This document shows, in pieces, positions 20 through 42,712 of a DNA stretch of 50,229 nucleotides; the stretch's first letter is position 1, and every line of letters starts with the position of its first letter. A program made the translations under genes and the position numbers. The notes under the pieces were generated by a model. The model had not been told where the DNA came from and made no database searches. It was given only the letters and a program-made list of their open reading frames with translations. Source of the stretch: a virus. Lineage: Duplodnaviria; Heunggongvirae; Uroviricota; Caudoviricetes. Location of the stretch: IMG/VR virus record IMGVR_UViG_2718217713_000003. One strand, 5' to 3'.

Positions 20-1315
20 TTAATTTTTCATTGCTTCGTTATGGGGCATGGTTGGGGCAAACTCGCTTAACTGTGTATTTAACAAAGCTACCTGTGCATT
101 ATTGTTTTCAGACATCCATTTTCCGTATACCTTAAATACCATTTGCGCATCTGCATGGCCCATCTGGTTTGCTATAAATGCCGGGTTAGCACCAGCTGTC
201 AGCGACCAGCAGGCATAAGTATGTCTCGACTGATATGATTTTCGATGGCGGAGTCCGGCACGTTTTATCGCTGCGTCCCACATCTGCCTTATTGAGTCAA
301 CGGTAAAATGGTCACCATAATTTTTTACTCTCGCTGACACTTCAGGTTGAAAAACAAAGGTGCATTTTTGTTTTTCTGTTCTGCCATACTCTCTGAGGTG
401 AACATCAATGATATGCTCTTTGCTCAGTCTCGTTAATGTCATCTGACTCCGGAGAGCGTCGATTGCTGGCTTAATAAGATGAATGACCCGATTGGTTCCC
501 GCCTGTGTTTTTGGTACCGTGAAACGGTCTTTTGCTAAATTTCTCCTGATCATCATTGTTCCATTTTTCAGATCTATGTCCTCCCATCCAAGTGCACACA
601 GCTCACCAGGGCGAACGCCAGTATAAACAGAAACACACCATAAATTTTTTGCTTGCTGATTTCTGCACGCATCGATAAGACGGATAAATTCCTCCCGCGA
701 AAGAGGATCCGGAATGGTTCTTGATTCCTTTAATGGCGAGATCCCCTTAAACGGGTTATCTGCCAGGTAACCGTTATCAACACCAAACTGGAACACGGCG
801 TTAAGATTTGTCATGTAATTATTTACAGTTACAGCCGATCTCCCTGGTTGTGTAACAATATAGTTACTTTTGGGGATCTGGTATCCAGTCAGTAGCTCTT
901 TACGAACCTCCAGTAATTTTTCTTTATTAATCGATGAGGCAAGATTTTTTTCACCGATTATGCTCAGGATATTTTTGATGACGGCACGGTATGTGTTGAG
1001 TGATGTTTTTGCGACTTCAGTTTCTTTCAGTGCCAGAAATTTTTCAGCCAGTTCTTTTATGGTTAAATCTTGTCGGGCCTCACCAAATTTTTCCAGATTG
1101 CGTGAGGAGGGAAACTGTTTTGCATAGTCGAAAACACCAGTTTTTATTGCGTAACAAACAGAGGCGCGTAGCTCACCTGCAACGCGCCTGTTTTTTGCTG
1201 TGTCAGGAACCCCCAGGTTTTCCCTGACTCTTACGCCTTTATAAACAAACCAGATACGTAATTTCCCTCCATGGTTTTCCACGCCTGTCGGATATTTCAT
1301 TTCAACTTCTCTCAT
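20..1315 (-). CDS. Phage tyrosine integrase (site-specific recombinase)
   Basis: 431 aa ORF at the prophage left end, with the conserved C-terminal catalytic region typical of tyrosine recombinases (R...HxxR...Y pattern). A second possible start is at the internal Met (MKYPTG, 1300). Confidence 0.85.
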   Translation of the reverse strand: MREVEMKYPTGVENHGGKLRIWFVYKGVRVRENLGVPDTAKNRRVAGELRASVCYAIKTGVFDYAKQFPSSRNLEKFGEARQDLTIKELAEKFLALKETEVAKTSLNTYRAVIKNILSIIGEKNLASSINKEKLLEVRKELLTGYQIPKSNYIVTQPGRSAVTVNNYMTNLNAVFQFGVDNGYLADNPFKGISPLKESRTIPDPLSREEFIRLIDACRNQQAKNLWCVSVYTGVRPGELCALGWEDIDLKNGTMMIRRNLAKDRFTVPKTQAGTNRVIHLIKPAIDALRSQMTLTRLSKEHIIDVHLREYGRTEKQKCTFVFQPEVSARVKNYGDHFTVDSIRQMWDAAIKRAGLRHRKSYQSRHTYACWSLTAGANPAFIANQMGHADAQMVFKVYGKWMSENNNAQVALLNTQLSEFAPTMPHNEAMKN

Positions 1316-1334: not shown

Positions 1335-1586
1335 TCAAGTAAGATGACGTCTTGGTCTTGCTGATGCCTGGCGCTCAATCCAGCGATCAATTTCTTCCAG
1401 GTTGTAAAAGCATGGACTGTTATCCCATGGCATACCGTCATGAGCGACATGCTTATATTCCCTTCCTTCCATAAACGATTTTTCCCGGGCCTTTTTTAAC
1501 GTACCTTTTTTTATTCCTTTCAGCGCAATTAACTGCTCTTCGGATACCCATTTGCCGGGAGAGACAATCATGATTACTTCGCTCAT
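1335..1586 (-). CDS. Excisionase-like small protein (YdaQ/Xis-like)
   Basis: 83 aa ORF immediately upstream of int on the same strand, the usual xis position. Family assignment is from memory of similar prophage proteins. Confidence 0.55.
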   Translation of the reverse strand: MSEVIMIVSPGKWVSEEQLIALKGIKKGTLKKAREKSFMEGREYKHVAHDGMPWDNSPCFYNLEEIDRWIERQASARPRRHLT

Positions 1587-1658: not shown

Positions 1659-4097
1659 TTAAGAATCAGCCTGACTCGGGATCAGTTTTTGCCAGATAAC
1701 TGAAACGTATTTTGCCTGGTAACGGGCGTCATCAAGTGCATTATGGCGCTCACCTTCGAATGGAATAGCCGTTCTGGCATCGAAGTCTATGGCTTTCCCC
1801 AGCTCAACGATTGTGCGTACATCGCGATCGTTGTAGTAACGCCACGGGCAGGGGATCCCCTGCCGTTCGTATGAACGGCGCAAAATCGTGTTGTCGAAGT
1901 TGGCTCCATTTCCCCAGACCTGAACAAAAAATTCACCGGAGTTTTCGTCGATAAATTCCCGCAATTGTAACAGTGCATCATCTAACGGGATTTCATCGGT
2001 CATAATGGCAGATTGCGCTTCGCGTGATTGCTTAAGCCACCATTTAATGGTGTCCCGATCAATAACTCCGCCAGCAGTTTCCAGATCGATAGTCTTACTA
2101 AATTCCGGTCCCATATCTCCGGTTTGCGGATCGAAAAATATTGCACCTATTGAGATGATCGGGGCATCAGGATTTTTTCCCATGGTTTCAAGGTCGATCA
2201 TTAGATGGTCACACGTCCTGCTGGTGGATGTGATTTCGTGATGACCGTTCACATTAATTAAGGGATCTGTCGCCTCGCCAGTTTCATTATCGCTATCGTG
2301 ATGCTGATTGCCGCCAGGGTTCTCCTTGTGTGGATGTTCAGCGCCTTCCATTTCCTCCGGATCATTTTCCTGAACTTCAACCTGATTCTCTTCATTGAAT
2401 GTTTCCTGGTATGTTGCGTCGCCCATCACCACACCACAATCAGGGCAGTTGCCGCCGCCGGTCTGACCGCAGGCGGTACAGACTTTTTCCGGTTCTTGTT
2501 GCTCTTCTGGTTCAGGCTGTTTCGTTTTTGGCTCGTTTTGTAACGCATTTGAGCTGTTTTGTTCCGCTTTCTGGTCGTTCCGTTCCGATTCTTGCTGGTT
2601 CTGGTTCACAGAATCGCGGGTTTCAATCCCCTTCACCCATTTCGGATCATTCGGGTCGCTAATCCCTGCAACAAATTCACCACGTGATGCAGCAAGCAAC
2701 TTATCGGCGTCAGGCTGGTTGATATTGGCTGCCTGCATAATTTTGTTTACTTCGTCAGCGGTGACTTTTACTTGGTTAGCGGAACTCACCTGCGACTGAG
2801 CATCCAGCGACTGCGCGTCCTGGCTATGTTCAGTTGTATCCGGTTCCATTGTTTCAGTTGTTGTCCGTTCACCTGCCATTGCGTCAGATGGTTGTGGTTT
2901 TTCTTCTGTTTCACGCTCAGTAACCACCTCGAGGTTAATTTCTTCCAGGATATCTTTTTCCGGCGTATGCCGGGCAACTGTGAGAGTTTCCTTGCTGGGG
3001 TTCTCGTGATCAGTTTCCGTCAAATAGGCGTTGATATACCCCTGAAGGCGTCCCGGGTAGTGATAAAATTCAGGGTGTGCGCTTCGGATAAGTGCAAAAA
3101 TAGCGGCGCGGGAATAGTCCAGAATACCCGGGGTTGCACGAAGTGCTGCGGACCATTCTTTGAACGGACTTTCTTTTTTCAGGACGACTTCTTTTGCGCG
3201 ACGATAAACGCTGCGCGGAATTTCATAAATATTAAAATCCATCGGAAGTGTGGCTGCTGCAATCTCCACATCCAGTGTGTCGAGGGTGTGTACTAAATTC
3301 GGATTGCGATCGGTTTTGTTCCCGCCACCGGCATTAGCACCGGAAGCCGTGCGGGTGATACGCGAAACACGATTTCCTTTCATCCACTCTTTTGTTAGCA
3401 GACCGCGATCGGTGTAGTCTGCGTCTAGGTATGCTTCGAAAAAAGCAGTCATCGGCCCCAGGCTTGAATTGCCAGGATTAGGGAAAACTTTGTCAGTATC
3501 ACGCACCAGTTTGTGGAGGTCGCGAATCTCCAGCGGGTCGAGCAGGCTGGTTTTGTGGGAAACAGCCAGGGCAGTAACAGCCGGTAGTTCTTCAGCCCGT
3601 GCAATGTGTAATGCCTGGAGTTCGTCGCGTGAAACGTGCGTTACCGGTTTTTTGCTGCCGTGTTGAGCAAGCCAACGAATGGGCAGTTCCTGACCGGAAA
3701 CAGGCAGAAGCATGCTCTCCTCAATCTCAGTCATGTCTTCGCCGTTGATGTTGGTATTGTCAGTGCTGGCTGGTTTGTCCTGAACTGAGGGGGAAGGGCC
3801 GATAAATGTCATTGTGATGCCATCTTTCCCGCCTTTTTCATAGCGGTTGCAGAATTCCGTATCAAACACGCCTTCTGGCGGAAGGTCGTCAACAACGGGC
3901 AAATTGACGCGGACGGGTTTTTTAAAGTCGTCTTCATCATAATCGTTGTCATCCATTGCGGTAATGCAGCGGGAGATTGCAACAGATAATTTTTTTGCTG
4001 TAGTCCAGTAAAAACCACCTTTAATTCCCAGGCGTTTTCTGACTTTGTCATTTTTTGCTTCGCAATATAGTGCAAATTCTTCTTTATCAGTGCTCAT
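1659..4097 (-). CDS. RecE-like (exodeoxyribonuclease VIII N-terminal homology) protein with a C-terminal DnaQ-like DEDDh 3'-5' exonuclease domain
   Basis: 812 aa. The N-terminal two thirds resemble RecE of the Rac prophage ([44 protein letters not shown] zinc ribbon). The C-terminus carries DEDDh exonuclease motifs ([23 protein letters not shown]). No recT/bet follows. Confidence 0.8.
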
Positions 4098-4187
4098 TGA
4101 TAAACCTCATTACAGATTTAAGGGTGAACAAATCTCTGCCATTGCTGACATATAAGAATGAAACTGGATATTTATTACGGTGCTGTT

Positions 4188-4379
4188 TTAAAATCCTGCC
4201 GGGATTTCGTTATTATTCTGGTAAATAACTTTATCGACCGGATAACAGTTGCCTGGAATTTTCTGTTCGGTTGCTGCTGCCATACATTCCTGCATTGTTC
4301 TGTGAACACTGACTGCAATATCAACTGGTTCTCCGGAAACAAGAAAAACCGTCAGAATAAGTGCAAATACTGGATTCAT
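4188..4379 (-). CDS. ydfD: Small membrane lysis protein YdfD
   Basis: 63 aa from the internal ATG (MNPVFALILTVFLVSG...), AGGA Shine-Dalgarno 8 nt upstream, ATGA start/stop overlap with dicB. The tabulated ORF start at 4433 is probably a run-on. Confidence 0.7.
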   Translation of the reverse strand: MNPVFALILTVFLVSGEPVDIAVSVHRTMQECMAAATEQKIPGNCYPVDKVIYQNNNEIPAGF

Positions 4380-4564
4380 TGTGCATATCCTTTTGGCTGC
4401 AGACGTAAACGGGCCAGCATTGAAACAATGCATACTTTATTTAATAGCTCCCGTTCTTGTTTTCTCTTGTTAATGGCATCTTCAGTAAATACTGGGTTAC
4501 TGATAGTGACACCAATTTCAAAACAACCTTCAGACGTATTAACGTTTGGTAATAACGTTTTCAT
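4376..4564 (-). CDS. dicB: Cell division inhibitor DicB
   Basis: 62 aa, MKTLLPNVNTSEGCFEIGVTISNPVF..., matching the remembered DicB sequence. It lies just downstream of dicF, as in Qin. Confidence 0.85.
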   Translation of the reverse strand: MKTLLPNVNTSEGCFEIGVTISNPVFTEDAINKRKQERELLNKVCIVSMLARLRLQPKGYAQ

Positions 4565-4732
4565 TATCGCGTCCTCAACAATGAATTTTGTGATGCAGTG
4601 CCTGGTGCCTCCAGGTGACGTTAACCAGTTAACAATTAACGCCGGATACAGAGAATCCACCCATAACACTGTTTTTGGTTTTAACTGTTCCGCGTGCGCT
4701 CAGCCGCATTCACCACATCACAAAATTCACTT

Positions 4733-4791
4733 TAAAAAGGGCGGCAGAGCAGTCACGGAGTAAAACTGATACCGCCAAACGTCACCAGAAA
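4733..4791 (-). ncRNA. dicF: DicF small regulatory RNA (ftsZ-targeting) with intrinsic terminator
   Basis: Minus-strand sequence TTTCTGGTGACGTTTGGCGGTATCAGTTTTACTCCGTGACTGCTCTGCCGCCCTTTTT read directly. It matches the remembered DicF sequence and ends in a GC stem plus T-run. Confidence 0.85.
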
Positions 4792-5131: not shown

Positions 5132-5350
5132 TTAACGCGGGTATGTAATCATTCTGGCAATGCTTAATGCCGCTGCTTTTTCCAGATTGGTGATATCCTG
5201 CTCCAGAGCGGACAGATTTTCAGCCTGCTTAGCCCTGGCTTCATTGGCCCATTTCAGATCCTGCGCTGCATTAATTTTCTGGCGCATCCACTCATAAAGT
5301 TCATCATCGGTATAGTCTGGCGCGATGATGACGGGTTCTCGTTTCTGCAT
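5132..5350 (-). CDS. ydfC: Qin-type small protein YdfC
   Basis: 72 aa ORF (MQKREPVIIAPDYTDDELYEWMRQ...) in the ydfA-ydfB-ydfC-dicF-dicB order. Confidence 0.75.
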   Translation of the reverse strand: MQKREPVIIAPDYTDDELYEWMRQKINAAQDLKWANEARAKQAENLSALEQDITNLEKAAALSIARMITYPR

Positions 5351-5379: not shown

Positions 5380-5508
5380 TCAGCCGTTAGATTTTGCCGA
5401 ACTGGAAAGCGCCTGTTTAAATTCGTTGAAGCTGAGAGCTTCTTCGCCGTCGGCAAGACCTTCGAAGTATTCTTCGTAAGCCTTTTCCATGATTGTGTCG
5501 AAATCCAT
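5380..5508 (-). CDS. ydfB: Qin-type small protein YdfB
   Basis: 42 aa ORF found by hand translation (MDFDTIMEKAYEEYFEGLADGEEALSFNEFKQALSSSAKSNG). It is below the ORF-track length cutoff and sits between ydfA and ydfC. Confidence 0.7.
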   Translation of the reverse strand: MDFDTIMEKAYEEYFEGLADGEEALSFNEFKQALSSSAKSNG

Positions 5509-5509
5509 A

Positions 5510-5665
5510 TCACTCACCTGAGTTTCTTTCCAGCCAGCGACGGGCACCATTTTCGGTTTTAAACGTTTTGCTTTTGGTATACGTCATCGCGGTGAACGTA
5601 CCGTCCTGGTTTGGAAACACGCCGTACACCAGAGATTCGTTGTTGCCAAGATCGATAGTATCCAT
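5510..5665 (-). CDS. ydfA: Qin-type small protein YdfA
   Basis: 51 aa from the internal ATG (MDTIDLGNNESLVYGVFPNQDG...), with a GAGG Shine-Dalgarno upstream. It is the first gene of the dicB operon. Confidence 0.7.
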   Translation of the reverse strand: MDTIDLGNNESLVYGVFPNQDGTFTAMTYTKSKTFKTENGARRWLERNSGE

Positions 5666-5744
5666 GCTGACCTCATTTCCCCTTAACGCTGGGGTAGCGG
5701 AACTGTTTGCTGAGAACACCGTGCGGTGTGTTGATGCAAACAAG

Positions 5745-5831: not shown

Positions 5832-6239
5832 TTATCTTTTATTTGTCCGCTGACGGGCTTTTAGTAATTCTTCAAAGAGTTTATTGAAGTTTCTTACTCG
5901 AGCTCGCATTTCGGCGAGCTGGGTATCCTGTTCTGATTCTGGCAGTGCATTAAACAGCTCAAGGAGCTCTAGTTCTTTGGGGGATAAGGCAACTGGCTTC
6001 TCAACAGGTGGTGTTGGTTGCTTGTCTTCATCGCCAAATAGAATCCATGTTGGTGAGCATTGCAATACTTTGCTGAGGGCAAAAAGGTTCTTCCCTGTAG
6101 GTTCACTATCACCCCGTTCCCATTGTGATACAGACACATGGGAGATTTTCAGGGCTTTAGCAAGAGACCTTTGGGTGTGTTTGAGGTTTTTCCGACGATA
6201 CCTGATGCGTTCGCCGATAGTTAAATTTTTTGTTTCCAT
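5832..6239 (-). CDS. dicA: Prophage repressor DicA (HTH_XRE family, cI-like)
   Basis: 135 aa with an N-terminal helix-turn-helix (LKHTQRSLAKALKISHVSVSQWERG). It is divergent from dicC. Confidence 0.85.
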   Translation of the reverse strand: METKNLTIGERIRYRRKNLKHTQRSLAKALKISHVSVSQWERGDSEPTGKNLFALSKVLQCSPTWILFGDEDKQPTPPVEKPVALSPKELELLELFNALPESEQDTQLAEMRARVRNFNKLFEELLKARQRTNKR

Positions 6240-6553: not shown

Positions 6554-7058
6554 ACAGGCTCGTGAGGCTCTGGATGCCTGGATATGTCGACCAGGAATGA
6601 CACAGGAGCAGGCGACGATATTAATCACTGAAGCATTCTGGGCTTTGAAAGAGCGCCCGAACATCGATGTTCAGCGTGTCACAGATGAAGGTGGCGCGGT
6701 TGATCAGCGAGCGCTTGGTGTTAATCGAGTGAAGATATTCGAACGCTGGAAGGCTATCGACACCAGGGATAAGCGTGAAAAGTTCACGGCGCTAGTGCCT
6801 GCGATTATGGAGGCTATCCGGATTAGTGATTTCAGGTTGTATCGTGAAATTACTGACGGAAAAAGCATCACGTGCATGATCGCCGGGTTAAACAAAGAAT
6901 ATGGCGATGTGGTGGAGTCCGGACTGCTTTTTGCTGATCCTGCCGTAGTGGATCGTGAAACTGACGAACTTATAGAAAAAGCAATTGCTTTCAAGCTTGC
7001 GTATCGACAGCAATACCAACAAAAAGCTGGATGGAATTATGAGCCTTCTTTTTGCTGA
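6537..7058 (+). CDS. Hypothetical early protein in the cII-equivalent position
   Basis: 173 aa ORF overlapping the dicC stop and the start of the replication gene. I recognise no family. Confidence 0.5.
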   Translation: MKITPEQAREALDAWICRPGMTQEQATILITEAFWALKERPNIDVQRVTDEGGAVDQRALGVNRVKIFERWKAIDTRDKREKFTALVPAIMEAIRISDFRLYREITDGKSITCMIAGLNKEYGDVVESGLLFADPAVVDRETDELIEKAIAFKLAYRQQYQQKAGWNYEPSFC

Positions 7059-8004
7059 ACGCCCACTGGTTATAAACACGCAGCTGGCAATGAAAATTGG
7101 CTTAAACGAAGCCATTGTTTTGCAACAACTGCACTACTGGTTGAGAGATACCAACTCCGGCATGGAATGTGATGGTGTTCGCTGGATTTATAACACAACG
7201 GAACAATGGCTGGAACAGTTCCCATTCTGGTCAGAGTCAACGTTAAAGCGCGCGTTTGCAAGTCTGAAAACGCTGGGGCTTTTGCGTTGTGAAAAGCTCA
7301 ATAAATCAAAGCGCGATATGACCAATTTCTACACGATCAACTATGGGAGCGAGCTTTTAGATGGTGGCAAATTGAGCGAATCCATCGGTTCAAAATGCGC
7401 CGCTCCATCAGGTCAAAATGACACGATGGAAGAGGTCAAAATGAAACGCTCCATTGGTTCAAAACGACCCAATGTCATCGGGTCAAAATGGCCTGATGAT
7501 CTTACAGAGAATACAACAGAGATTACTACAGAGAATAAAAACACTTTTCGTCCGGAAGCTTCGCAACCGGACCCGCAGACGACTGAACAGGATTTTTTAA
7601 CCCGGAACTCCGACGCGGTTGTGTTTAGTGCGAAAAAACGCCAGTGGGGTAGCAGGGAGGATTTGGCGTGTGCGCAGTGGATCTGGGGGCGGATCGTGGG
7701 TCTCTACGAACAGGCAGCCAGTGATGATGGCGAGATCATGCGACCAAAAGAGCCTAACTGGACTGCCTGGGCCAATGACGTGCGCACAATGCGGATGCTG
7801 GATGGCAGAAGCCACAGACAAATTTGCGAAATGTTTGGTCGGGTTCAGCGAGATCCATTCTGGGTAAAAAACATCATGAGCCCGTCAAAGCTCCGCGAAA
7901 AATGGGACGAACTGGTCATCCGCCTGGGACGTTCACCTGTGCAGCGTTGTGTTAATCATATTTCTGAACCGGATACAGAAATTCCGCCTGGTTTCAGAGG
8001 ATAA
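7039..8004 (+). CDS. Phage replication initiator (O-like replisome organiser N-terminal domain)
   Basis: The N-terminus (MSLLFAERPLVINTQLAMKIGLNEAIVLQQLHYWL) is typical of phage replication initiators, and the gene contains an iteron array. Start taken at the internal ATG 7039; the ORF is open from 6985. Confidence 0.65.
   Translation: MSLLFAERPLVINTQLAMKIGLNEAIVLQQLHYWLRDTNSGMECDGVRWIYNTTEQWLEQFPFWSESTLKRAFASLKTLGLLRCEKLNKSKRDMTNFYTINYGSELLDGGKLSESIGSKCAAPSGQNDTMEEVKMKRSIGSKRPNVIGSKWPDDLTENTTEITTENKNTFRPEASQPDPQTTEQDFLTRNSDAVVFSAKKRQWGSREDLACAQWIWGRIVGLYEQAASDDGEIMRPKEPNWTAWANDVRTMRMLDGRSHRQICEMFGRVQRDPFWVKNIMSPSKLREKWDELVIRLGRSPVQRCVNHISEPDTEIPPGFRG
7385..7491. repeat. Iteron array (putative origin of replication) inside the initiator gene
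   Basis: Five copies of GGT(T)CAAAA(T/C)G at about 23 bp spacing (near 7390, 7412, 7435, 7458, 7481). At protein level they encode the repeated SIGSK/IGSK motif. Confidence 0.6.
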
Positions 8005-8044: not shown

Positions 8045-8467
8045 GTGGCAAAAGTTTTTACACAAGAAGAGCGGGAAAAAATTAAATGGCAGGTGGTGGA
8101 ACTCGTGCGCCAGAGCGGCCGTGAGACGTTACGGCAACTGGAAGCTAAAACAGGTGCGACTAGATATCTGATGAGCGTTCTTGCCAGAGAGCTGGTAGCC
8201 AGTGGCGATGTATACAACTCCGGCTACGGGTTATTCCCCTCTGAACAGGCGCGTAAGGACTGGCAAAACGCCCGCAAAAAACTCTCGAGGGCAAAGGTGA
8301 AGAAACCTGCTGTGGTTGATCCGGACCTTATCTGGTCATCACCTGACGGAGAAATACGTCGCTACGACAGTCGCCTAAACATAATCTGTCGCGAGTGCCG
8401 GAAGAGCGAAGTTATGCAGCGCATACTGGCTTTCTATCAGGGTAATTTTCAGGACGTGGCGCAGTGA
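8045..8467 (+). CDS. Hypothetical protein, translationally coupled to the downstream methyltransferase fragment
   Basis: 140 aa ORF with a GTG start after an AAGGGGGA Shine-Dalgarno. Its stop overlaps the GTG start of the methyltransferase ORF. Confidence 0.5.
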   Translation: MAKVFTQEEREKIKWQVVELVRQSGRETLRQLEAKTGATRYLMSVLARELVASGDVYNSGYGLFPSEQARKDWQNARKKLSRAKVKKPAVVDPDLIWSSPDGEIRRYDSRLNIICRECRKSEVMQRILAFYQGNFQDVAQ

Positions 8468-8820
8468 GTGCACCGGCAACCATTCTTGATATGTGCTGTG
8501 GCAGCCGCATGTTCTGGTTCGATAAGTCTGACGAACGGGCGATATTTAGCGATATCAGAAAAGAAGGATACACATTACGCAATGGGAGACGCTTGATTAT
8601 CAGCCCTGACATTATCGCAGATTTTCGTGCATTATCATTTGCAGACGCATCTTTTTCGATGGTTGTATTAGACCCTCCGCATCTTGAGCGTGTTGGTGAT
8701 AACGCCTGGATGGGAAAGAAATATGGACGGCTGAATAAAGATGCCTGGCGTGATGATTTGCGACAGAGATTTAAAGAAGCTTTTCGGGTGTTGAGGCCGC
8801 ACGGCGTTCTGATTTTTTAA
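8464..8820 (+). pseudogene. DNA methyltransferase fragment (SAM-binding motif and DPPH catalytic motif), cut by an in-frame TAA
   Basis: 118 aa with FxGxG-like MCCGSRMF and an N6/N4-methyltransferase motif IV (VLDPPH). The frame continues for 29 more codons after the TAA at 8818-8820, to 8910. Even the extended product of about 150 aa is too short for a full methyltransferase. Confidence 0.6.
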
Positions 8821-9972
8821 TGGAATGAAACGCAAATACCGGTAAGCCAGATTCTGGCACTGACAGATAGAAAGCCTGTTATCTGTCAACGAACAGGGAA
8901 AAAACGATAAAACCCACTGGATTATTTTTATGAAAGAGGCATCCAGTGAGTAGATTCGTAAGGTTACAGATACGTATATCTGAATAATTAAATTCAGTTC
9001 TGTAAATAAAACTTAATCCTTAACCGGATGGATTTCTGCACCCTCAGAACATCAGGAGGCCGCCCGAAAGGGCGGTAGTGAAATGCGAAAGTTCAAAATT
9101 ATTATTGAAACGGGAATAGCTGGTGGAGATTTTGAGGATGTATTCGAAGTGGACGATGACGCAACACCTGATGAAATTCATGACGGAGCATAAGAAATTT
9201 TCTTTAACTACTGCAATTACTCATACCACGAAATAAAAGACGATGAGGAAGAACAAAGTGGCTGATTTTTGTTCAGCTAAATATAACATCAGTTTTGAAG
9301 AGCGGGATGAACTATTAATGGACTATGGTGAGTTACGCGGTGGAAGTGCTGCTGATGTCGAATCCTAGCGTGATGACTATGAAGCGGGAAAAACTCCGGT
9401 CGAAGCATATTGTGATGAGTGGGGCGATGAATGAGCGAGATTAATTATCAGGAAGGGCATGAAACGGCGGGGCAAGCAAAACCAGTGACATGGCGATATC
9501 GCTACGTGAAAAAAGGCGTTACGGACTTTCAGGGGAAGTAGTGGTCTGGTGACTGGAAATATGTACCGAAAAAAGAGGATTGTAACGACAGGCCGAACTA
9601 TCAAATTCAGGCCTTATTCACTGCCTCACCAGTCCCGGTTACATCAGAAGAATTGGTTAAAGCTGTGCACTTTTATGAACAACTAAAACGCGAAAATCCA
9701 CCAACATCCGGCAACTAGATTAATGGGTTAACTATGTCGGTTAAACGACCAGCCAACTGAAAAAGCGGAAACCTGATTACAGGTTGCCAGATAAGGCAAT
9801 GAGCTACCTGGCGCGGAACGGACTGATAAGTATGGGGAATGTTTTACGATGAACCTTTAGACTAAAGAGTTTGTAACGCTATGTAAGTGATTTTTTCTGG
9901 TTTAGATATTTATATGTCCGGCCAAATTGAGGTGTGTTTAAATGTAATTGCACATTGATTGTAGGAGGAATA

Positions 9973-10152: not shown

Positions 10153-10486
10153 ATACAGCGAACTCCATTGGTTTAGTTGGATATTTACTGTGCTGGACAA
10201 AAACGGTTTGCGGGGAAATCTTAGTTAAGTAGAATGACTGCGGGTGCTTGAGGCTATCTGCCTCGGGCACGAACACCAACGGCAGGTAGAGAAAAGCCCC
10301 AGTTAACATTACGCGTCCTGCAAGACGCTTAACATTAATCTGAGGCCAATTTCATGCCAGACACATGTAGGTTAGCCTCTTACGTGCCGAAAGGCAAGGA
10401 GAAGCAGGCTATTGTTAACACCAAGCTGTAATGTCCCCTTTGAACCATTCTAAAATGTCCCCAGACAATTCTCTGGGGGATTTTTC

Positions 10487-10858
10487 ATGACCAAAGAAAC
10501 TGTTACGATGAGTCATAAGGAACTCCACCGACTTCAGATTATTCAGGAGTCAATTAATCGACATATTACTCAGGAACAAGCTGCGGCACGCATTGGCATT
10601 TCTATTCGGCAGGTTAAACGTCTGGTGCAACGGTATAGAAATGAAGGGCCTTCTGGTCTGGTTTCCCACCGACGTGGAAAGCGTCCTAATAATTCCTTTT
10701 CTACTGAATTCAGAGCAACAGTAATTTCACTCCTCAAAGGCCGTTACGCTGATTTTGGACCTACGTTTGCGTGCGAAAAATTGCGCGAGATACACGGTTT
10801 ATCTTTATCCGTTGAAACTCTCAGAAAGTGGATGATAGAAGAGGGGGGTATGGCGTGA
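10487..10858 (+). CDS. DDE transposase, N-terminal HTH part (frame-disrupted)
   Basis: 123 aa with a helix-turn-helix (ARIGISIRQVKRLVQRY). The downstream catalytic frame is open from 10839, so the two parts join across a G6 run at 10842-10847. Confidence 0.7.
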   Translation: MTKETVTMSHKELHRLQIIQESINRHITQEQAAARIGISIRQVKRLVQRYRNEGPSGLVSHRRGKRPNNSFSTEFRATVISLLKGRYADFGPTFACEKLREIHGLSLSVETLRKWMIEEGGMA

Positions 10859-11828
10859 ACGCCGTCGTAAAATTGCCCGTATATATCAACGCCGCATGCG
10901 ACGACCATCTTACGGTGAACTGATCCAGATTGATGGCTCACCTCATGACTGGTTTGAAAATCGAGGCCCCAGATGTACACTGATCGTTTTCATTGATGAT
11001 ACCACCAGTGCGTTGATGGCGTTGCGTTTTGTGCCTGCTGAAACAACCCGGGCTTACATGGAAACCCTCCGGGGTTACCTTAATGATCATGGCGTACCGC
11101 TCGCTCTCTACTCTGATAGACACAGTATATTCAGGGTAAATAACCCAGAGCGGGAAGGTGAGCTGACCCAGTTCACTCGTGCGATAAAGACACTGGGCAT
11201 CGAGCCAATCCATGCCAACAGCCCGCAGGCAAAAGGGCGGGTAGAGCGCGCCAATCAGACACTACAGGACAGGCTGGTCAAAGAAATGCGGCTTCAGAAT
11301 ATCAGTGATATTGAAACAGCAAATGCATGGTTGCCGACCTTTATTGAAGCCTATAACAACCGGTTCGCTACGTCGCCTCGTACTACTGATAATGCTCATC
11401 TTGATGTGCACCATTCTGAAGAGGAACTGGGTTATATCTTCAGCCTACAGGCGAAGCGCGTTCTGTCTAAAAATCTCACTTTCCAGTACAAAAGCAGTGC
11501 GTTTCAGGTACGCAGTGAGGGCCGGGGATATCGACTTAGGCATTCGGTTGTTACTGTATGCGAGAACTTTGACGGTGAAATTAACGTTCTGTATGACGGG
11601 AAAGCGCTGGGCTGGGAAAAGTATGTTGATGGCCCGGAGCCTATACCACTGGATGATGAAAAGAGTGTCCATGAACGAGTGGATAATGCCCGTATTGATT
11701 TACGCTCAAAATACTATGTTAAACCTAAAGCTGACCATCCCTGGCTTACGCGCCGAACGCAAAGTCATCAGCAAGTTAAGCCCCCGAAGTTACCTAAAAA
11801 GAAGCCTGATCCCGATAAAAAAGATTGA
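10839..11828 (+). CDS. DDE transposase, catalytic part (retroviral-integrase-like rve fold; IS481-like, ISNCY not excluded)
   Basis: Candidate DDE residues are in IQIDGSPHDW, LALYSDRHSIF and PQAKGRVERANQTLQ. The first ATG in frame is at 10896. Confidence 0.7.
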   Translation, partial: KRGVWRERRRKIARIYQRRMRRPSYGELIQIDGSPHDWFENRGPRCTLIVFIDDTTSALMALRFVPAETTRAYMETLRGYLNDHGVPLALYSDRHSIFRVNNPEREGELTQFTRAIKTLGIEPIHANSPQAKGRVERANQTLQDRLVKEMRLQNISDIETANAWLPTFIEAYNNRFATSPRTTDNAHLDVHHSEEELGYIFSLQAKRVLSKNLTFQYKSSAFQVRSEGRGYRLRHSVVTVCENFDGEINVLYDGKALGWEKYVDGPEPIPLDDEKSVHERVDNARIDLRSKYYVKPKADHPWLTRRTQSHQQVKPPKLPKKKPDPDKKD

Positions 11829-13105: not shown

Positions 13106-13118
13106 TTGTAATTACAAG
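13093..13118. promoter_or_regulatory. relBE operator (relO-like inverted repeat)
   Basis: CTTGTAATGACATTTGTAATTACAAG, with repeated TTGTAAT and inverted ATTACAA elements, just upstream of relB. Confidence 0.6.
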
Positions 13119-13129
13119 AGGTGTAAGAC

Positions 13130-13369
13130 ATGGGTAGCATTAACCTGCGTATTGACGATGAACTTAAAGCGCGTTCTTACGCCGCGCTTGAAAAAATGGG
13201 TGTAACTCCTTCTGAAGCGCTTCGTCTCATGCTCGAGTATATCGCTGACAATGAACGCTTGCCGTTCAAACAGACACTCCTGAGTGATGAAGATGCTGAA
13301 CTTGTGGAGATAGTGAAAGAACGGCTTCGTAATCCTAAGCCAGTACGTGTGACGCTGGATGAACTCTGA
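13130..13369 (+). CDS. relB: Antitoxin RelB
   Basis: 79 aa (MGSINLRIDDELKARSYAALEKMGVTPSEALRL...). Its stop overlaps the relE start. Confidence 0.9.
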   Translation: MGSINLRIDDELKARSYAALEKMGVTPSEALRLMLEYIADNERLPFKQTLLSDEDAELVEIVKERLRNPKPVRVTLDEL

Positions 13370-13656
13370 TGGCGTATTTTCTGGATTTTGACGAGCGGGC
13401 ACTAAAGGAATGGCGAAAGCTGGGCTCGACGGTACGTGAACAGTTGAAAAAGAAGCTGGTTGAAGTACTTGAGTCACCCCGGATTGAAGCAAACAAGCTC
13501 CGTGGTATGCCTGATTGTTACAAGATTAAGCTCCGGTCTTCAGGCTATCGCCTTGTATACCAGGTTATAGACGAGAAAGTTGTCGTTTTCGTGATTTCTG
13601 TTGGGAAAAGAGAACGCTCGGAAGTATATAGCGAGGCGGTCAAACGCATTCTCTGA
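13369..13656 (+). CDS. relE: mRNA interferase toxin RelE
   Basis: 95 aa (MAYFLDFDERALKEWRKLGSTVREQLKKKL...RLVYQVIDEKVVVFVISVGKRERSEVY). Confidence 0.9.
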   Translation: MAYFLDFDERALKEWRKLGSTVREQLKKKLVEVLESPRIEANKLRGMPDCYKIKLRSSGYRLVYQVIDEKVVVFVISVGKRERSEVYSEAVKRIL

Positions 13657-14351: not shown

Positions 14352-14417
14352 ACTCATCTACAATCTTGCGCGGGGCTGAACTCCCGCTGAGTAACACCGT
14401 GCCACCGGAGAAAACCG

Positions 14418-14696
14418 ATGGCACGCAACGCAAAATATTACAATTCTGATAATTCGCCCGTTCTTGCCTGCACGCACGGGCGGTATTCTCACGCATTCAA
14501 GTTTGAATGGTTCCAGCACCCTCCATGCACTGCAGAACAGGCCGAATGGCTGATTCATTCTTACCGCAGGCGCGGGTTCGAGGTTAAGAAAGCTCTCAGT
14601 CTCGACTATCGGCACTGGATAATCTCTGTCAGGCTGCCTTATTCCGAACGCCCACCACGTGCGTCCCGCACTTTCCAGCAACGGATCTGGAGGTAA
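14418..14696 (+). CDS. Hypothetical protein
   Basis: 92 aa ORF whose stop directly abuts the GTG start of ydfU. I recognise no family. Confidence 0.4.
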   Translation: MARNAKYYNSDNSPVLACTHGRYSHAFKFEWFQHPPCTAEQAEWLIHSYRRRGFEVKKALSLDYRHWIISVRLPYSERPPRASRTFQQRIWR

Positions 14697-14697
14697 C

Positions 14698-15747
14698 GTG
14701 CGGGTATTACTTAGACCTGTTCTGGTGCCTGAGCTTGGGCTGGTGGTCCTTAAGCCGGGCCGTGAATCCATACAGATATTTCATAATCCTCGAGTGCTGG
14801 TGGAACCGGAACCAAAAAGCATGCGTAATCTGCCATCCGGAGTCGTTCCTGCCGTTCGCCAGCCGCTGGCGGAAGACAAAACATTGCTGCCGTTTTTTAG
14901 TAACGAACGGGTGATTCGTGCTGCTGGCGGCGTTGGCGCATTGTCCGACTGGCTATTACGTCATGTTACATCCTGCCAGTGGCCTAATGGCGATTACCAT
15001 CACACTGAAACAGTCATTCACCGTTATGGTACCGGCGCAATGGTGTTGTGCTGGCACTGCGACAACCAACTGCGTGACCAGACATCGGAATCACTGGAGC
15101 TGCTTGCTCAACAAAATCTGACAGCATGGGTGATTGACGTCATCCGTCACGCAATAAGCGGTACGCAGGAGCGGGAATTATCTTTGGCTGAATTATCCTG
15201 GTGGGCGGTCTGCAATCAGGTGGTGGATGCACTACCTGAGGCTGTATCGCGTCGTTCGCTGGGATTACCAGCGGAAAAAATCTGCTCGGTGTACCGCGAA
15301 AGCGACATCGTACCGGGAGAGCAGACCGCCACCAGCATATTGAAACAACGCACAAAAAATCTTGCACCGTTGCCTTACGCCCACCAGCAACAAAAATCAC
15401 CACAGGAAAAGACGGTGGTAAGCATCACCGTTGATCCAGAGTCTCCGGAATCTTTCATGAAGCTGCCTAAACGTCGCCGCTGGGTTAAGGAGAAATACAC
15501 ACGTTGGGTTAAGACACAGCCGTGTGCTTGCTGCGGTATGCCAGCCGACGATCCGCATCATCTGATTGGTCACGGGCAGGGCGGAATGGGAACAAAAGCA
15601 CATGATCTCTTTGTGTTGCCTTTGTGCAGAAAGCATCACAACGAGCTGCATACGGATACAGTGGCATTTGAAGATAAGTATGGCTCCCAACTGGAGCTGA
15701 TATTTCGTTTTATCGATCGCGCGCTGGCAATTGGCGTACTGGCGTAA
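14698..15747 (+). CDS. ydfU: YdfU-like protein (DUF968) with a C-terminal Cys/His-rich HNH-like motif
   Basis: 349 aa from the GTG at 14698 (GGAGG Shine-Dalgarno 5 nt upstream). C-terminal motif CACCGMPADDPHHLIGHG...CRKHHNELH. Confidence 0.65.
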   Translation: MRVLLRPVLVPELGLVVLKPGRESIQIFHNPRVLVEPEPKSMRNLPSGVVPAVRQPLAEDKTLLPFFSNERVIRAAGGVGALSDWLLRHVTSCQWPNGDYHHTETVIHRYGTGAMVLCWHCDNQLRDQTSESLELLAQQNLTAWVIDVIRHAISGTQERELSLAELSWWAVCNQVVDALPEAVSRRSLGLPAEKICSVYRESDIVPGEQTATSILKQRTKNLAPLPYAHQQQKSPQEKTVVSITVDPESPESFMKLPKRRRWVKEKYTRWVKTQPCACCGMPADDPHHLIGHGQGGMGTKAHDLFVLPLCRKHHNELHTDTVAFEDKYGSQLELIFRFIDRALAIGVLA

Positions 15748-17148: not shown

Positions 17149-17448
17149 AAAAATTCCTTAATACTGATAACTTGGCGCACTATACACACGTTCCTGAAGA
17201 AAGCTATAGTTTTTTGATGGGGTTGAAGATGGCTGGATGTCTAAAATAAACATTGCTTCATATGTTCAACTATGCGTTAATGATTGCGTCGGTTTGAAGA
17301 ACAGACGATATACGAAGTAGTTTACTAAAGCAGTTCTCATTTCAGGTGTTATTCACTTATTCCTTCTTTGAGTCTCTCCAATTAAGTACGAAGTCGTTTC
17401 TGTTATGCAAACCATTTATGCCGAAAGGCTCAAGTTAAGGAATGTAGA

Positions 17449-17664
17449 ATGTCAAATAAAATGACTGGTTTAGTAAAATGGTTTAACGCTGATAAAGGTT
17501 TCGGCTTTATTTCTCCTGTTGATGGTAGTAAAGATGTGTTTGTGCATTTTTCTGCGATTCAGAATGATAATTATCGAACCTTATTTGAAGGTCAAAAGGT
17601 TACCTTCTCTATAGAGAGTGGTGCTAAAGGTCCTGCAGCAGCAAATGTCATCATTACTGATTAA
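17449..17664 (+). CDS. cspB: Cold-shock protein CspB
   Basis: 71 aa ([38 protein letters not shown]...), divergent from cspF across a 300 bp region of long 5' untranslated sequence. Confidence 0.85.
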
Positions 17665-17945
17665 AATTCATCGCTCGTCTGTATACGATAACGAAGAAGG
17701 CTGATGCCTGAGTAGAGATACGGACAGAGTAGTGAATATTGGATCTCTTTAATAAAAAGTAAGGAGGTCCAATACATGAAACAATGGCTAGCATATTTGG
17801 CAAAATCTTAATCAGGAAAAGTATGCTAACCATTGTGGTGAAGTGCAGGTTTGCTGCATGAATAGTTTTACAGCAGAAGCTAACTGCTGGCATGGCAAAA
17901 CAAAGTGCGTAAGTGGATGACTCCCACAAAAAGCACCACAATCTC

Positions 17946-18949: not shown

Positions 18950-19973
<1,024 letters not shown>

Positions 19974-20336
19974 GGTAATATTAAATCGGAACATTTACAT
20001 CGCGGAATGTAAAATTTAAATAAAAAGGACTCTTCCATGAGCCAAAATTCCTGAAATCTTAAGGGTAAGATAAAAGGTCTTAATCAGAATGACACGTTAT
20101 TATTAATAAATAAAGCTATTCTTTCATTGCTGTGTTTTTCTTTACAAAAGTAATCCTTGCTATGGGTGGTTAATCATGCGTTAATGGTGTTCTGGTTTGT
20201 TACAAATTTATCTGAAGCAGTCATTGTTATAATTTTATTATTTGTACCTCTTGAGATTTCCTTGTTGGTTTTTCTCTCTGATATTTTTTTTCGGACCATT
20301 CTGCCCAAGGGCTAATTTCTTCAAAAGGTAATAATT

Positions 20337-20549
20337 ATGTCTAACAAAATGACTGGTTTAGTGAAATGGTTTAACCCTGAAAAAGGTTTTGGTTTCATCA
20401 CGCCGAAAGATGGCAGCAAAGATGTGTTTGTCCATTTCTCAGCAATTCAGAGCAACGATTTCAAAACATTAACTGAGAATCAGGAAGTTGAATTTGGTAT
20501 TGAGAACGGACCTAAAGGTCCTGCCGCTGTTCATGTAGTGGCGCTTTGA
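20337..20549 (+). CDS. cspI: Cold-shock protein CspI
   Basis: 70 aa ([45 protein letters not shown]...). Confidence 0.85.
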
Positions 20550-20820
20550 GGTAGACAATATTACAAACCATATTCACTTTAGATGCCCGTGTTGTCATGG
20601 TTCCCAGTATAGAACATCATCTTTTGATGTTTCTGACATGAATCCTTTCGGGGCAAAATGTATCTTTTGTAAATCAATGATGATTACATTTGATAATATT
20701 TCACAATACTTAAATGCCAGCCGTCTGTCGTTGGATTTAAAAAAGTGAAAATGAAGGCTCCTTCGGGAGCTTTTTTGCTTGGTATCTATTCGATGGATAC
20801 TCACATACTACGGTAACATC

Positions 20821-23183: not shown

Positions 23184-26864
<3,681 letters not shown>

Positions 26865-26884
<20 letters not shown>

Positions 26885-28184
26885 TCTCCCGCATATTGCC
26901 AGCATGGCTTTTAATGAGCCGCTGATGCTTGAACCCGCCTATGCGCGGGTTTTCTTTTGTGCGCTTGCAGGCCAGCTTGGGATCAGCCGCCTGACGGATG
27001 CGGTGTCCGGCGACAGCCTGACTGCCCAGGAGGCACTCGCGACGCTGGCATTATCCGGTGATGATGACGGACCACGACAGGCCCGCAGTTATCAGGTCAT
27101 GAACGGCATCGCCGTGCTGCCGGTGTCCGGCACGCTGGTCAGCCGGACGCGGGCGCTGCAGCCGTACTCGGGGATGACCGGTTACAACGGCATTATCGCC
27201 CGTCTGCAACAGGCTGCCAGCGATCCGATGGTGGACGGCATTCTGCTCGATATGGACACGCCCGGCGGGATGGTGGCGGGGGCATTTGACTGCGCTGACA
27301 TCATCGCCCGTGTGCGTGACATAAAGCCGGTATGGGCGCTGGCCAATGACATGAACTGCAGCGCAGGTCAGCTGCTTGCCAGTGCCGCCTCCCGGCGTCT
27401 GGTCACGCAGACCGCCCGGACAGGCTCCATCGGCGTCATGATGGCTCACAGTAATTACGGCGCTGCACTGGAGAAACAGGGCGTGGAAATCACGCTGATT
27501 TACAGCGGCAGCCGTAAGGTGGATGGCAACCCCTACAGCCATCTACCGGATGATGTCCGGGAAACATTGCAGTCCCGGATGGATGCAACCCGCCGGATGT
27601 TTGCACAGAAGGTGTCGGCATATACCGGCCTGTCCGTGCAGGCTGTGCTGGATACCGAGGCTGCAGTGTACAGCGGTCAGGAGGCCATTGATGCCGGACT
27701 GGCTGATGAACTTGTCAACAGCACCGATGCGATCACCGTTATGCGTGATGCACTGGATGCACGTAAATCCCGTCTCTCAGGAGGGCGAATGACCAAAGAG
27801 ACTCAATCAACAACTGTTTCAGCCACTGCTTCGCAGGCTGACGTTACTGACGTGGTGCCAGCGACGGAGGGCGAAAACGCCAGCGCGGCGCAGCCGGACG
27901 TGAACGCGCAGATCACCGCTGCGGTTGCGGCAGAAAACAGCCGCATTATGGGGATCCTCAACTGTGAGGAGGCTCACGGACGCGAAGAACAGGCCCGCGT
28001 GCTGGCAGAAACCCCCGGTATGACCGTGGAAACGGCCCGCCGCATTCTGGCAGCTGCACCACAGAGTGCACAGGCGCGCAGTGACACTGCGCTGGATCGT
28101 CTGATGCAGGGGGCACCGGCACCACTGGCTGCAGGTAACCCGGCATCTGATGCCGTTAACGATTTGCTGAACACACCAGTGTAA
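26865..28184 (+). CDS. C: Head maturation protease / minor capsid protein C
   Basis: 439 aa from the GTG at 26865 (VTAELRNLPHIASMAFNEPLMLEPAYARVFF...), matching lambda gpC. The tabulated ORF start at 26730 is a run-on. Confidence 0.9.
27789..28184 (+). CDS. Nu3: Scaffolding protein Nu3 (in-frame internal start within C)
   Basis: 131 aa from the internal ATG preceded by GGAGGG (MTKETQSTTVSATASQADVTDVVPATEG...). Confidence 0.8.
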   Translation: MTKETQSTTVSATASQADVTDVVPATEGENASAAQPDVNAQITAAVAAENSRIMGILNCEEAHGREEQARVLAETPGMTVETARRILAAAPQSAQARSDTALDRLMQGAPAPLAAGNPASDAVNDLLNTPV

Positions 28185-28193
28185 GGGATGTTT

Positions 28194-28526
28194 ATGACGA
28201 GCAAAGAAACCTTTACCCATTACCAGCCGCTGGGCAACAGTGACCCGGCTCATACCGCAACCGCGCCCGGCGGATTGAGTGCGAAAGCGCCTGCAATGAC
28301 CCCGCTGATGCTGGACACCTCCACCCGTAAGCTGGTTGCGTGGGATGGCACCACCGACGGTACTGCCGTTGGCATTCTGGCGGTTGATGCTGACCAGACC
28401 AGCACCACGCTGACGTTCTACAAGTCCGGCACGTTCCGTTATGAGGATGTGCTCTGGCCGGAGGCTGCCAGCGACGAGACGAAAAAACGGACCGCGTTTG
28501 CCGGAACGGCAATCAGCATCGTTTAA
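28194..28526 (+). CDS. D: Capsid decoration protein D
   Basis: 110 aa ([39 protein letters not shown]...), matching lambda gpD. Confidence 0.95.
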
Positions 28527-28545
28527 CTTTACCCTTCATCACTAA

Positions 28546-28568
28546 AGGCCGCCTGTGCGGCTTTTTTT
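28546..28568 (+). terminator. Hairpin plus T-run between D and E (possible attenuator)
   Basis: GCCGCCTGTGCGGC stem followed by TTTTTTT. Confidence 0.4.
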
Positions 28569-28581
28569 ACGGGATTTTTTT

Positions 28582-29607: not shown

Positions 29608-29648
29608 TCATGGCCCTTCGGGGCCATTTTCTCTCTGTGGAGGAGTCC

Positions 29649-30044
29649 ATGACGAAAGATGAACTGATTGCCCGTCTTCAGGTGCTGGGTGAGCAACTGA
29701 ACCGTGATGTCAGCCTGACGGGGACGAAAGAAGAACTGGTGCTCCGTGTGGCAGAGCTGGAAGAGGAGCTTGATGACACGGATGACGGAGCCGGTCAGGA
29801 CACATCTGTCAGCCCGGAAAATGCGCTGACCGGACATGAAAATGAGGTGGTATCAGCGCAGCCGGATACCGTGATTGATACGGCTGCTCTGGTCACGGTC
29901 GTGGCACTGGTGACGCTGCATACTGATGCACTTCACGCCACGCGGGATGAGCCTGTGGCATTTGTGCTGCCGGGAACGGCGTTTCGTGTCTCTGCCGGTG
30001 TGGCAGCCGAAATGACAGAACATGGCCTGGCCAGAATGCAATAA
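29649..30044 (+). CDS. FI: DNA packaging protein FI
   Basis: 131 aa from the ATG at 29649 (MTKDELIARLQVLGEQLNRDVSLTGTKEEL...), GGAGG Shine-Dalgarno. Confidence 0.9.
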   Translation: MTKDELIARLQVLGEQLNRDVSLTGTKEELVLRVAELEEELDDTDDGAGQDTSVSPENALTGHENEVVSAQPDTVIDTAALVTVVALVTLHTDALHATRDEPVAFVLPGTAFRVSAGVAAEMTEHGLARMQ

Positions 30045-30055
30045 CGGGAGGCGCT

Positions 30056-30409: not shown

Positions 30410-30420
30410 AAGGGGGATGT

Positions 30421-31391: not shown

Positions 31392-31398
31392 GGACGCT

Positions 31399-32139: not shown

Positions 32140-32154
32140 TCCGGAGAGTCAGCG

Positions 32155-36589: not shown

Positions 36590-36594
36590 ATCCC

Positions 36595-37907: not shown

Positions 37908-37967
37908 TGCAAAATGTTTTATGTGAAACCGCCTGCGGGCGGTTTTATCGTTTATGGAGCATGACGA

Positions 37968-40639: not shown

Positions 40640-42712
<2,073 letters not shown>

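Follow-up and report, generated by a model that had tools for sequence, protein, structure and literature searches.

What function can be served by a RecE-like protein that carries a nuclease of a different family and has no RecT annealase beside it? The question is raised by a tailed phage (Caudoviricetes; IMG/VR record IMGVR_UViG_2718217713_000003) whose whole stretch of 50,229 nt was analysed and is called the window below. A single open reading frame (ORF) at 1659..4097 on the minus strand, of 812 codons plus a stop, was characterised by means of Pfam, NCBIfam and BLASTP. A first-pass annotation, made from the letters alone, had described its product as a RecE-like region followed by a DnaQ-like DEDDh 3'-5' exonuclease. 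The product is an early protein made of two parts, intact and selected, in which a DEDDh domain replaces the PD-(D/E)XK 5'-3' nuclease of RecE, and recT is absent. This 812-aa protein is neither rare nor unannotated. The locus is of value chiefly for its clean covariation between nuclease type and recT, for a RecE head that is conserved independently, and for the correction of a widespread annotation.

Architecture of the fused protein

The N-terminal two thirds had been read as RecE-like, and this assignment is borne out by BLASTP, in which residues 50-591 of K-12 RecE align with aa 58-614 of the query (2256..3926, minus strand) at 59% identity. Pfam PF06630 (Exonuc_VIII) covers aa 57-189 (E 3.9e-36). 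The zinc ribbon noticed at the first pass is present as well: a CxxC-x7-CxxC element at aa 540-555 (2433..2480, minus strand; C540-x2-C543...C551-x2-C554), which aligns with the conserved RecE counterpart CNACGQTGGDNCPDCG. The homology stops at the boundary of the RecE nuclease domain. At the DNA level, the resemblance to K-12-type recE ends near aa 613, BLASTP gives no alignment past RecE residue 591, and the NCBIfam model NF007259 (exodeoxyribonuclease VIII) is matched over positions 1-602 of 877 only, its 928.5 bits lying below the cut-off of 1269. The crystallised nuclease fragment of RecE comprises residues 606-866. A review places the nuclease domain at residues 564-866 and describes the N-terminal domain as being of unknown function and as enhancing linear-linear recombination (PMC11611040).

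Beyond this boundary, aa 631-802 (1692..2207, minus strand) are occupied by a DEDDh exonuclease domain of the DexA/EcD/Rv2179c family, PF16473 or 'Rv2179c-like 3'-5' exoribonuclease'. The match extends over profile positions 2-177 of 177 with an E-value of 2.7e-67 and 226.3 bits, against a gathering threshold of 27. The DEDDh motifs already proposed are found as DLETMG (aa 635), WGNGANFD (aa 728) and HNALDDA (aa 785). The catalytic pentad D635, E637, D735, H785 and D790 aligns with D7, E9, D119, H186 and D191 of T4-type DexA, and is invariant or nearly so among 14 diverse family members, with the catalytic residues conserved in 13 of them. DexA (PDB 8KEL/8KEN) is the sole solved structure reached by sequence (8KEL, E 1.7e-6), and a weak Pfam match to RNase_T is also recorded (E 2.9e-4). 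The claim that this C-terminus is not of the RecB type holds: BLASTP, NCBIfam, and phmmer and tblastn with the RecE C-terminal domain produced no PD-(D/E)XK match, and the profile search suggested at the first pass places the C-terminal part in the exonuclease family PF16473 and not in the RecB/PD-(D/E)XK one. The 812-aa protein belongs, by sequence, to the DEDDh PF16473/DexA family, and a 3'-5' DNA exonuclease activity would be expected from its homology to DexA and EcD.

The folded head corresponds to aa 1-395 (2913..4097, minus strand). Its confidently predicted fold would consist of small alpha/beta units in aa 1-100 and a helical domain in aa 123-395, and has no significant counterpart in either solved structures or predicted viral ones. 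An acidic low-complexity linker, aa 396-625 (2223..2912, minus strand), follows under relaxed constraint, with the recombination junction at aa ~614-630. Measured against the O145 orthologue, dN/dS reaches 0.48 in the linker but only 0.10 in aa 1-380 and 0.09 in the DEDDh domain; between more distant sequences dS is saturated, with dN at 0.33-0.58. Purifying selection acts on both folded parts, and the relaxation of the linker is what is expected of a disordered tether. The RecE head is thus kept under purifying selection together with a nuclease of predicted opposite polarity.

The first-pass annotation had found no recT/bet-like gene in the early-left operon, an absence that extends to the whole window. 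RecT, Red-beta, Erf, Rad52-like, Sak4, single-stranded DNA-binding (SSB), lambda Exo and Gam proteins and the RecE C-terminal domain were used as seeds in a tblastn search of the entire window and in phmmer searches of the 265 ORFs that reach 50 aa, with nothing better than chance (E > 0.3). An annealase elsewhere in the operon was looked for and not found, Pfam detected no annealase domain in ten other early-region ORFs, and none is annotated in the near-identical phage PhiR42_1. Hidden annealases were considered in the unannotated ORFs at 4158-4763 (+), 13112-13492 (-) and 14358-14771 (-) and in an O-like ORF at 6985-8004; this idea was rejected, with no Pfam match in any of them. No annealase, SSB or Gam gene was found in the operon or the window, and the locus falls outside the Rec module as defined in PMC12315714, where the nuclease gene is contiguous with a strand-annealing protein, accompanied or not by SSB and anti-RecBCD genes; stand-alone homologues elsewhere do fit this definition. 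Without a RecE nuclease domain and recT or bet, the system therefore cannot be a classical RecET or Red pair, as had been concluded at the first pass. This does not mean that the protein is unrelated to recombination. Because the nuclease domain, the model cut-off and the recT partner all fail, the protein stands outside the exonuclease VIII family as defined.

Nuclease type and recT across genomes

A scan of one genome per species yielded 68 loci with this DEDDh domain. Fusions of 641-851 aa account for 26 of them, all positive for the RecE head and distributed over at least 12 enterobacterial genera, and 39 encode stand-alone DEDDh proteins, mostly of 170-260 aa. No gene for RecT, Red-beta, lambda Exo, Gam or the RecE C-terminal domain was found within 8 kb of any fused locus (0 of 26), nor of any stand-alone one. 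In the 3.5 kb upstream of the fused genes, on the same strand, only helix-turn-helix (HTH) repressors, Rrf2-type regulators and DUF1482, DicB or DUF1391 proteins are encountered, and an integrase-sized ORF typically lies downstream. The Rrf2 family accounts for 17 upstream ORFs (~370 nt) in genera other than Escherichia, many of them directly upstream (for example L021:5934-6305 and L040:5571-5942, in locus coordinates); in E. coli, ydfD/DUF1482 sits where the Rrf2 ORF sits in these genera. DicB is seen once among 90 upstream ORFs.

The loci of RecE-type proteins were examined in six diverse representatives, obtained by exact-protein look-up, that combine the RecE N-terminal region with a DUF3799 PD-(D/E)XK domain (827-1089 aa). 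In all six, recT follows within ~15 nt and is itself followed by xis-int, and the recE gene of the K-12 Rac prophage is likewise followed by recT and then xis-int. In these phages recT is thus placed between the exonuclease gene and the excisionase, and the rest of the operon (DUF1482, YdaE, KilR, repressor, YdaS/YdaT) resembles that of the fused loci. A scan of viral contigs with the K-12 RecE C-terminal domain recovered only Rac copies at least 99% identical. Considered against the fused loci, the six representatives and K-12 indicate that the change of nuclease domain is accompanied by the loss of recT. Since the PD-(D/E)XK tail always occurs with recT and the DEDDh tail never with an annealase, RecT is tied to the RecE nuclease domain and not to the head.

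The stand-alone relatives, 45-62% identical, are found in a different company. In enterobacterial prophages they are often the last gene of a recombination module, for example directly after Erf-SSB (L031) and Rad52-SSB (L045) pairs, and after Sak4 with one gene between (L035). The Pfam counts of neighbours over the 39 stand-alone loci are SSB 8, AAA_24 5, ERF 3 and Rad52 3, and several of these genes are followed by an integrase. At two further loci (L024:6112-7863 and L057:6121-7979), the stand-alone gene comes after a cluster of yfdQ (DUF2303), ParB-HTH and YfbR-like genes. A cluster of this kind is reported by PMC12315714 for phages with 'no Rec module', a hint that the DEDDh nuclease has another recurrent neighbourhood.

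The fused protein is widespread, often mislabelled, and of an architecture already in databases, where the pair PF06630+PF16473 is recorded. The exact 812-aa sequence occurs on at least 1000 contigs, and a search with the 620 N-terminal residues gave, among 120 matches listed, only proteins at least 99% identical. The gene is covered over at least 80% of its length in 1266 of the 5426 complete E. coli genomes, and DNA of the DEDDh domain is found in 4047 of them (75%), as many as 7 times in a single genome. The names in use are 'exonuclease', '3'-5' exonuclease', '3'-5' exoribonuclease domain-containing protein', 'RecE family exodeoxyribonuclease' and 'exodeoxyribonuclease VIII'. The NCBI label '3'-5' exonuclease' is already applied in many genomes. 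The labels 'exodeoxyribonuclease VIII', 'RecE family' and 'exoribonuclease' are still widespread despite the lack of a RecE nuclease and of recT, and given the frequency and copy number of the domain in E. coli, this mislabelling is massive. In the literature, neither a functional study of the fused protein nor a paper combining RecE with DEDDh was found, and the accessible part of PMC12315714 does not describe a RecE-head::DnaQ fusion. That paper does mention sporadic DnaQ-type genes near int and 'RecE-2' proteins without a nuclease domain.

The RecE N-terminal family forms 260 clusters at 50% identity. Among the representatives listed, 17 have a DEDDh tail and 20 a RecE-type nuclease. A further 45 long representatives carry neither tail: Pfam finds no C-terminal nuclease in 43, one has RecT and one DUF3799. 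Many of these tail-less sequences are probably partial. A second head precedes the same tail in an 823-aa 'Tritos/O20' form, whose first ~245 residues are different and which shares with the window protein aa ~270-360 (38% identity), the linker, the zinc ribbon and a near-identical DEDDh domain. The K-12 Qin pseudogene ydfE (L004:10079-10999) is the IS2-truncated start of this form (L006:5001-7472, minus strand), identical to WP_001537739.1 over 256 of 256 residues at the same ynfA/rspA locus. The idea that ydfE might be a fragment of the window protein itself was discarded, as BLASTP gave no match between them and ydfE represents the alternative, 'YdfE-type' head. Two E. coli proteins of 214-261 aa (P0060 and P0075) join a YdfE-type N-terminus to the middle of the DEDDh domain; having lost the DxE motif, they should be catalytically dead products of recombination or deletion. 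An 812-aa ORF with a DEDDh segment 100% identical in protein sequence and a RecE-head E-value of 0 is also present on a contig of a metagenome-assembled genome binned as 'Veillonella parvula' (L008, JAGZPX010000007.1); this copy is almost certainly a binning contaminant.

Prophage setting

The prophage is lambdoid and Qin/Rac-like, and the 812-aa ORF is part of its leftward early region. Directly downstream comes an excisionase gene (1335..1586), then an integrase gene (20..1315), both on the minus strand. Immediately upstream in the operon is a ydfD homologue of 63 aa (4188..4379, minus), preceded by a dicB homologue of 62 aa (4376..4564, minus) and by a ydfC homologue (5132..5350, minus), between which the small RNA (sRNA) DicF is encoded (4739..4790, minus; Rfam RF00039, 76.7 bits, E 2.8e-15). 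Homologues of ydfB (5380-5550) and ydfA (within 5510-5743) follow, and a dicA/cI-type repressor gene stands at the head of the leftward region (5832..6239, minus). The interval between dicA and the exonuclease ORF thus contains only ydfA, ydfB, ydfC, DicF, dicB and ydfD, a complete Qin-type dicB operon, and the prophage is apparently intact. The gene is 100% identical in E. coli strain C11. Phage PhiR42_1 is ~98% identical over 83% of the first 8 kb of the window, and the gene is carried by the viable phages PhiR42_1, Tritos, HannyBb and mEp460.

On the other side of the repressor, the O-like ORF at 6985-8004 (+), called 'replication protein O' in the near-identical phage and without a Pfam match, precedes DUF977 and a small methyltransferase-like ORF (8045-8820, +, in this region). 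The early-right region showed no helicase-loader gene (P, DnaC or DnaB-like) and is also interrupted by an insertion sequence (HTH_28 + rve_3) at 10487-11828. Rfam further identifies a sok antitoxin RNA of the hok/sok type (10242-10413, +), two cspA thermoregulator leaders (17288-17680 and 20191-20576, +) and the Hfq-binding sRNA isrC (41699-41821, minus). GC content is ~0.35-0.50 across the early and lysis regions (1-22000) and jumps to 0.57-0.60 where the lambda-like head and tail genes lie (24000-40000), which marks a pronounced compositional mosaic.

Chi sites (GCTGGTGG) are in excess in the window, with 7 occurrences for 1.7 expected from shuffled sequences, none of the 100 shuffles having reached 7. 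They are located at 2220-2227, 9119-9126, 14739-14746, 14796-14803 and 19364-19371 on the plus strand, and at 15329-15336 and 15381-15388 on the minus strand; the one at 2220-2227 falls within the exonuclease gene. This excess suggests a fit with a phage devoid of its own recombination module. The assignment of the phage to a class with 'no Rec module, high Chi' was not supported, 7 sites being far below the 23 given for phage LLS in PMC12315714.

Role of the protein and relation to known systems

The role favoured here, at about an even chance, is that the protein processes DNA ends in phage recombination or replication and does so without a dedicated annealase. It is preferred because the head is shared with a recombination nuclease, because the stand-alone domain sits in annealase-SSB modules, and because a 3'-5' exonuclease can make annealable ends, as does E. 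coli XthA, which generates cohesive ends for RecA-independent joining (PMC6379578). DexA and EcD are 3'-5' DNA exonucleases (PMC12153337), and DnaQ-like 3'-5' nucleases were recognised in 2025 as members of lambdoid Rec modules (PMC12315714). The fusion could have arisen by a single crossover between a phage of the '...recE-recT-xis-int' type and another whose early-left operon ended in '...annealase-SSB-DEDDh-xis-int'. Situated in the linker of recE, this event would have removed the RecE nuclease domain and recT together while joining the RecE head to the DEDDh gene, a scenario that fits the location of some stand-alone genes ahead of integrases. On prophage induction, the DicA-repressed leftward promoter probably drives the gene together with ydfABC-dicF-dicB-ydfD. 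This co-transcription is proposed because the gene lacks a recognisable promoter, no sigma-70-like site having been found on the minus strand between dicA and the exonuclease gene by a scan that amounts to a weak consensus test. Through two-metal DEDDh chemistry (D635, E637, D735 and D790, with H785 as general base), the enzyme would strip nucleotides off DNA 3' ends as DexA and EcD do, and the RecE head may provide the same targeting or tethering as in RecE, whatever that is. The trimming of 3' tails or flaps and the exposure of 5' overhangs are examples of the processing that could result. The phage might then rely on the host RecA, RecBCD and SSB, or on the annealases of co-resident prophages.

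Several points weigh against this role. The proposed activity, polarity and substrate are drawn from homology. The fused form is never found beside an annealase, and the link to recombination is made through the shared RecE head and through guilt by association with the stand-alone proteins. In PMC12315714, DnaQ-type genes located near int, outside a contiguous Rec module, are not counted as Rec proteins, and DnaQ-like 3'-5' exonucleases are said usually to inhibit homologous recombination. Among relatives studied by experiment, EcD is the closest, and it was described as a nuclease directed against phages, not as a recombination factor (PMC12153337). The promoter scan has the weakness already mentioned, and the single-event origin is derived from gene orders, not from a phylogeny.

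The anti-phage activity of EcD leads to an unlikely alternative, in which the DEDDh domain would act in prophage defence or exclusion, as in the HREX type, by destroying the modified DNA (5-hydroxymethylcytosine, 5hmC, or other) of superinfecting phages such as the T-even ones. EcD, an E. coli DexA homologue of 189 aa, breaks down 5hmC DNA and the T4 genome while leaving unmodified double-stranded DNA intact, and its expression from a plasmid confers protection against T4 (PMC12153337). An EcD-type sequence is 38.8% identical to the window domain (E 1.6e-38), closer than DexA at 27-29%. Exclusion-type effects are also those of DicB, encoded in the same operon, which counts in favour of this alternative. 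EcD was identified here from primer sequences and not from an accession, which tempers the comparison: the EcD-type sequence was recovered with the published forward primer and has Ala78 as reported (PMC12153337). The published reverse primer contains one extra A relative to the genomic sequence. The gene so recovered (L102:6401-6991, minus strand) belongs to a P2-like early operon (Cox ... EcD - Dam), among DUF4754/DUF4761 genes. What was published as a 'bacterial defence' gene is thus an early gene of a phage, a point that also speaks for a defence role of the window domain. On the other side, the residues implicated in 5hmC recognition, W152 and D169 in DexA (W and E in EcD), correspond here to Tyr and to Lys or Ala (depending on the alignment), the Trp position is variable across the DEDDh family, and the tetramer-forming Asp (D90 in DexA), lost in the 'dimer-only' EcD, is kept in both alignments. 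As judged by alignment, the signatures proposed for HREX specificity fail in the window protein. Moreover, the gene would be silent in a lysogen, since it is buried in an early-left operon that is repressed and lacks a separate promoter-like site. PADLOC gave no match, and this alternative leaves the 600-aa RecE head unexplained.

A contribution to host-DNA degradation in lytic growth, in the manner of T4 DexA turning host DNA fragments into nucleotides, appears very unlikely. The homology to DexA, with its documented scavenging role (PMC12153337), and a presumed early lytic expression plead for it. Against it, no endonuclease partner exists in the operon, and the stand-alone homologues cluster with annealase and SSB genes and not with nucleotide metabolism, apart from a few YfbR-like 5'-nucleotidase neighbours. 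Host-DNA degradation is not known from temperate lambdoid phages. That the domain would instead trim RNA 3' ends, for example those of the DicF precursor among the operon transcripts, is highly improbable. In its favour, the Pfam family is named after the mycobacterial exoribonuclease Rv2179c, RNase_T is weakly matched, and the operon also encodes DicF, 640 nt upstream. Against it, EcD and DexA, the two relatives nearest to the domain among those characterised, are DNA enzymes, the neighbours of the stand-alone genes are DNA-transaction proteins, and the fused form is also present in genera whose operons carry no dicF or dicB, as the rarity of DicB among upstream ORFs illustrates. The fusion might finally be a frozen accident, a recombination scar in decaying prophages not selected for any function. 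The region is indeed a mosaic hot spot, in which two heads precede the same tail, truncated recombinants without DxE occur, and K-12 ydfE is an IS2-cut remnant. Such an accident is nevertheless extremely unlikely, as the ORF is intact on at least 1000 contigs and in the 26 species-representative genomes counted above, omega is ~0.1 in both folded parts, the catalytic residues are conserved and the gene is carried by viable phages.

Within the preferred reading, that of DNA-end processing, a bolder version can be formulated, which is itself rather improbable. The ~600 N-terminal residues of RecE would form an autonomous module indifferent to the polarity of its nuclease, acting in the targeting of ends or forks or in the tethering of two ends, and the fusion would be a one-polypeptide, annealase-independent system of end processing and recombination, in which an XthA-like generator of cohesive ends is brought to the ends of phage DNA. 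If correct, it would provide a handle on the long-unknown function of the RecE N-terminus, in a system present in most E. coli strains. The function of the head is experimentally approachable, because two natural chimeras and two natural heads, the RecE-type and the YdfE-type, can be compared. More generally, phages without a recognisable Rec module make up 22% of lambdoid phages (PMC12315714), and the protein is a candidate either for a hitherto overlooked DNA-end function in them or for an EcD-like anti-phage nuclease of prophages. A 3'-5' exonuclease on a RecE scaffold is also a possible tool for recombineering or in vivo assembly.

The relation of this protein to known systems can now be specified. 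Rv2179c of M. tuberculosis shares with it the PF16473 domain, through a full-length profile match, but is described as an exoribonuclease, and is more distant than DexA, since a direct sequence search against PDB chains missed it. XthA is a host enzyme of unrelated fold, that of the AP-endonuclease family. The likeness is an analogy of mechanism only, a 3'-5' exonuclease exposing complementary 5' overhangs that anneal without a phage annealase (PMC6379578). T4 DexA, whose structure was solved in PMC12153337, has the same fold family and catalytic pentad; it differs by its lower identity, its stand-alone form, its extra loops and helices, its temperature-driven switch between dimer and tetramer, its origin in a virulent phage with hydroxymethylcytosine (hmC) DNA, and by S87, the equivalent of which is Pro here. 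EcD (PMC12153337) is likewise a PF16473 protein encoded by phages or prophages, whose similarity extends over 183 aa and includes all catalytic residues. In contrast to the window protein, it stands alone in its P2-like operon, has no RecE head and differs at the 5hmC and Asp (Ala78) positions discussed above. The DnaQ-like nucleases of lambdoid modules (for example that of phage epsilon34; PMC12315714) compare with the stand-alone relatives that end Erf-SSB, Rad52-SSB and Sak4 modules, whereas the window protein joins the domain to a RecE head and has no annealase or SSB. RecE of Rac, which works with RecT, differs by its PD-(D/E)XK domain (606-866), replaced here by DEDDh, by the recT gene missing here, by the NCBIfam equivalog cut-off, below which the window protein falls, and by a predicted opposite polarity. 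It resembles the window protein over its ~590 N-terminal residues, zinc ribbon included, and in the position of its gene, after small kil/ydaE/DUF1482-type genes and before xis-int, in a prophage with a YdaS/YdaT-type early-right region.

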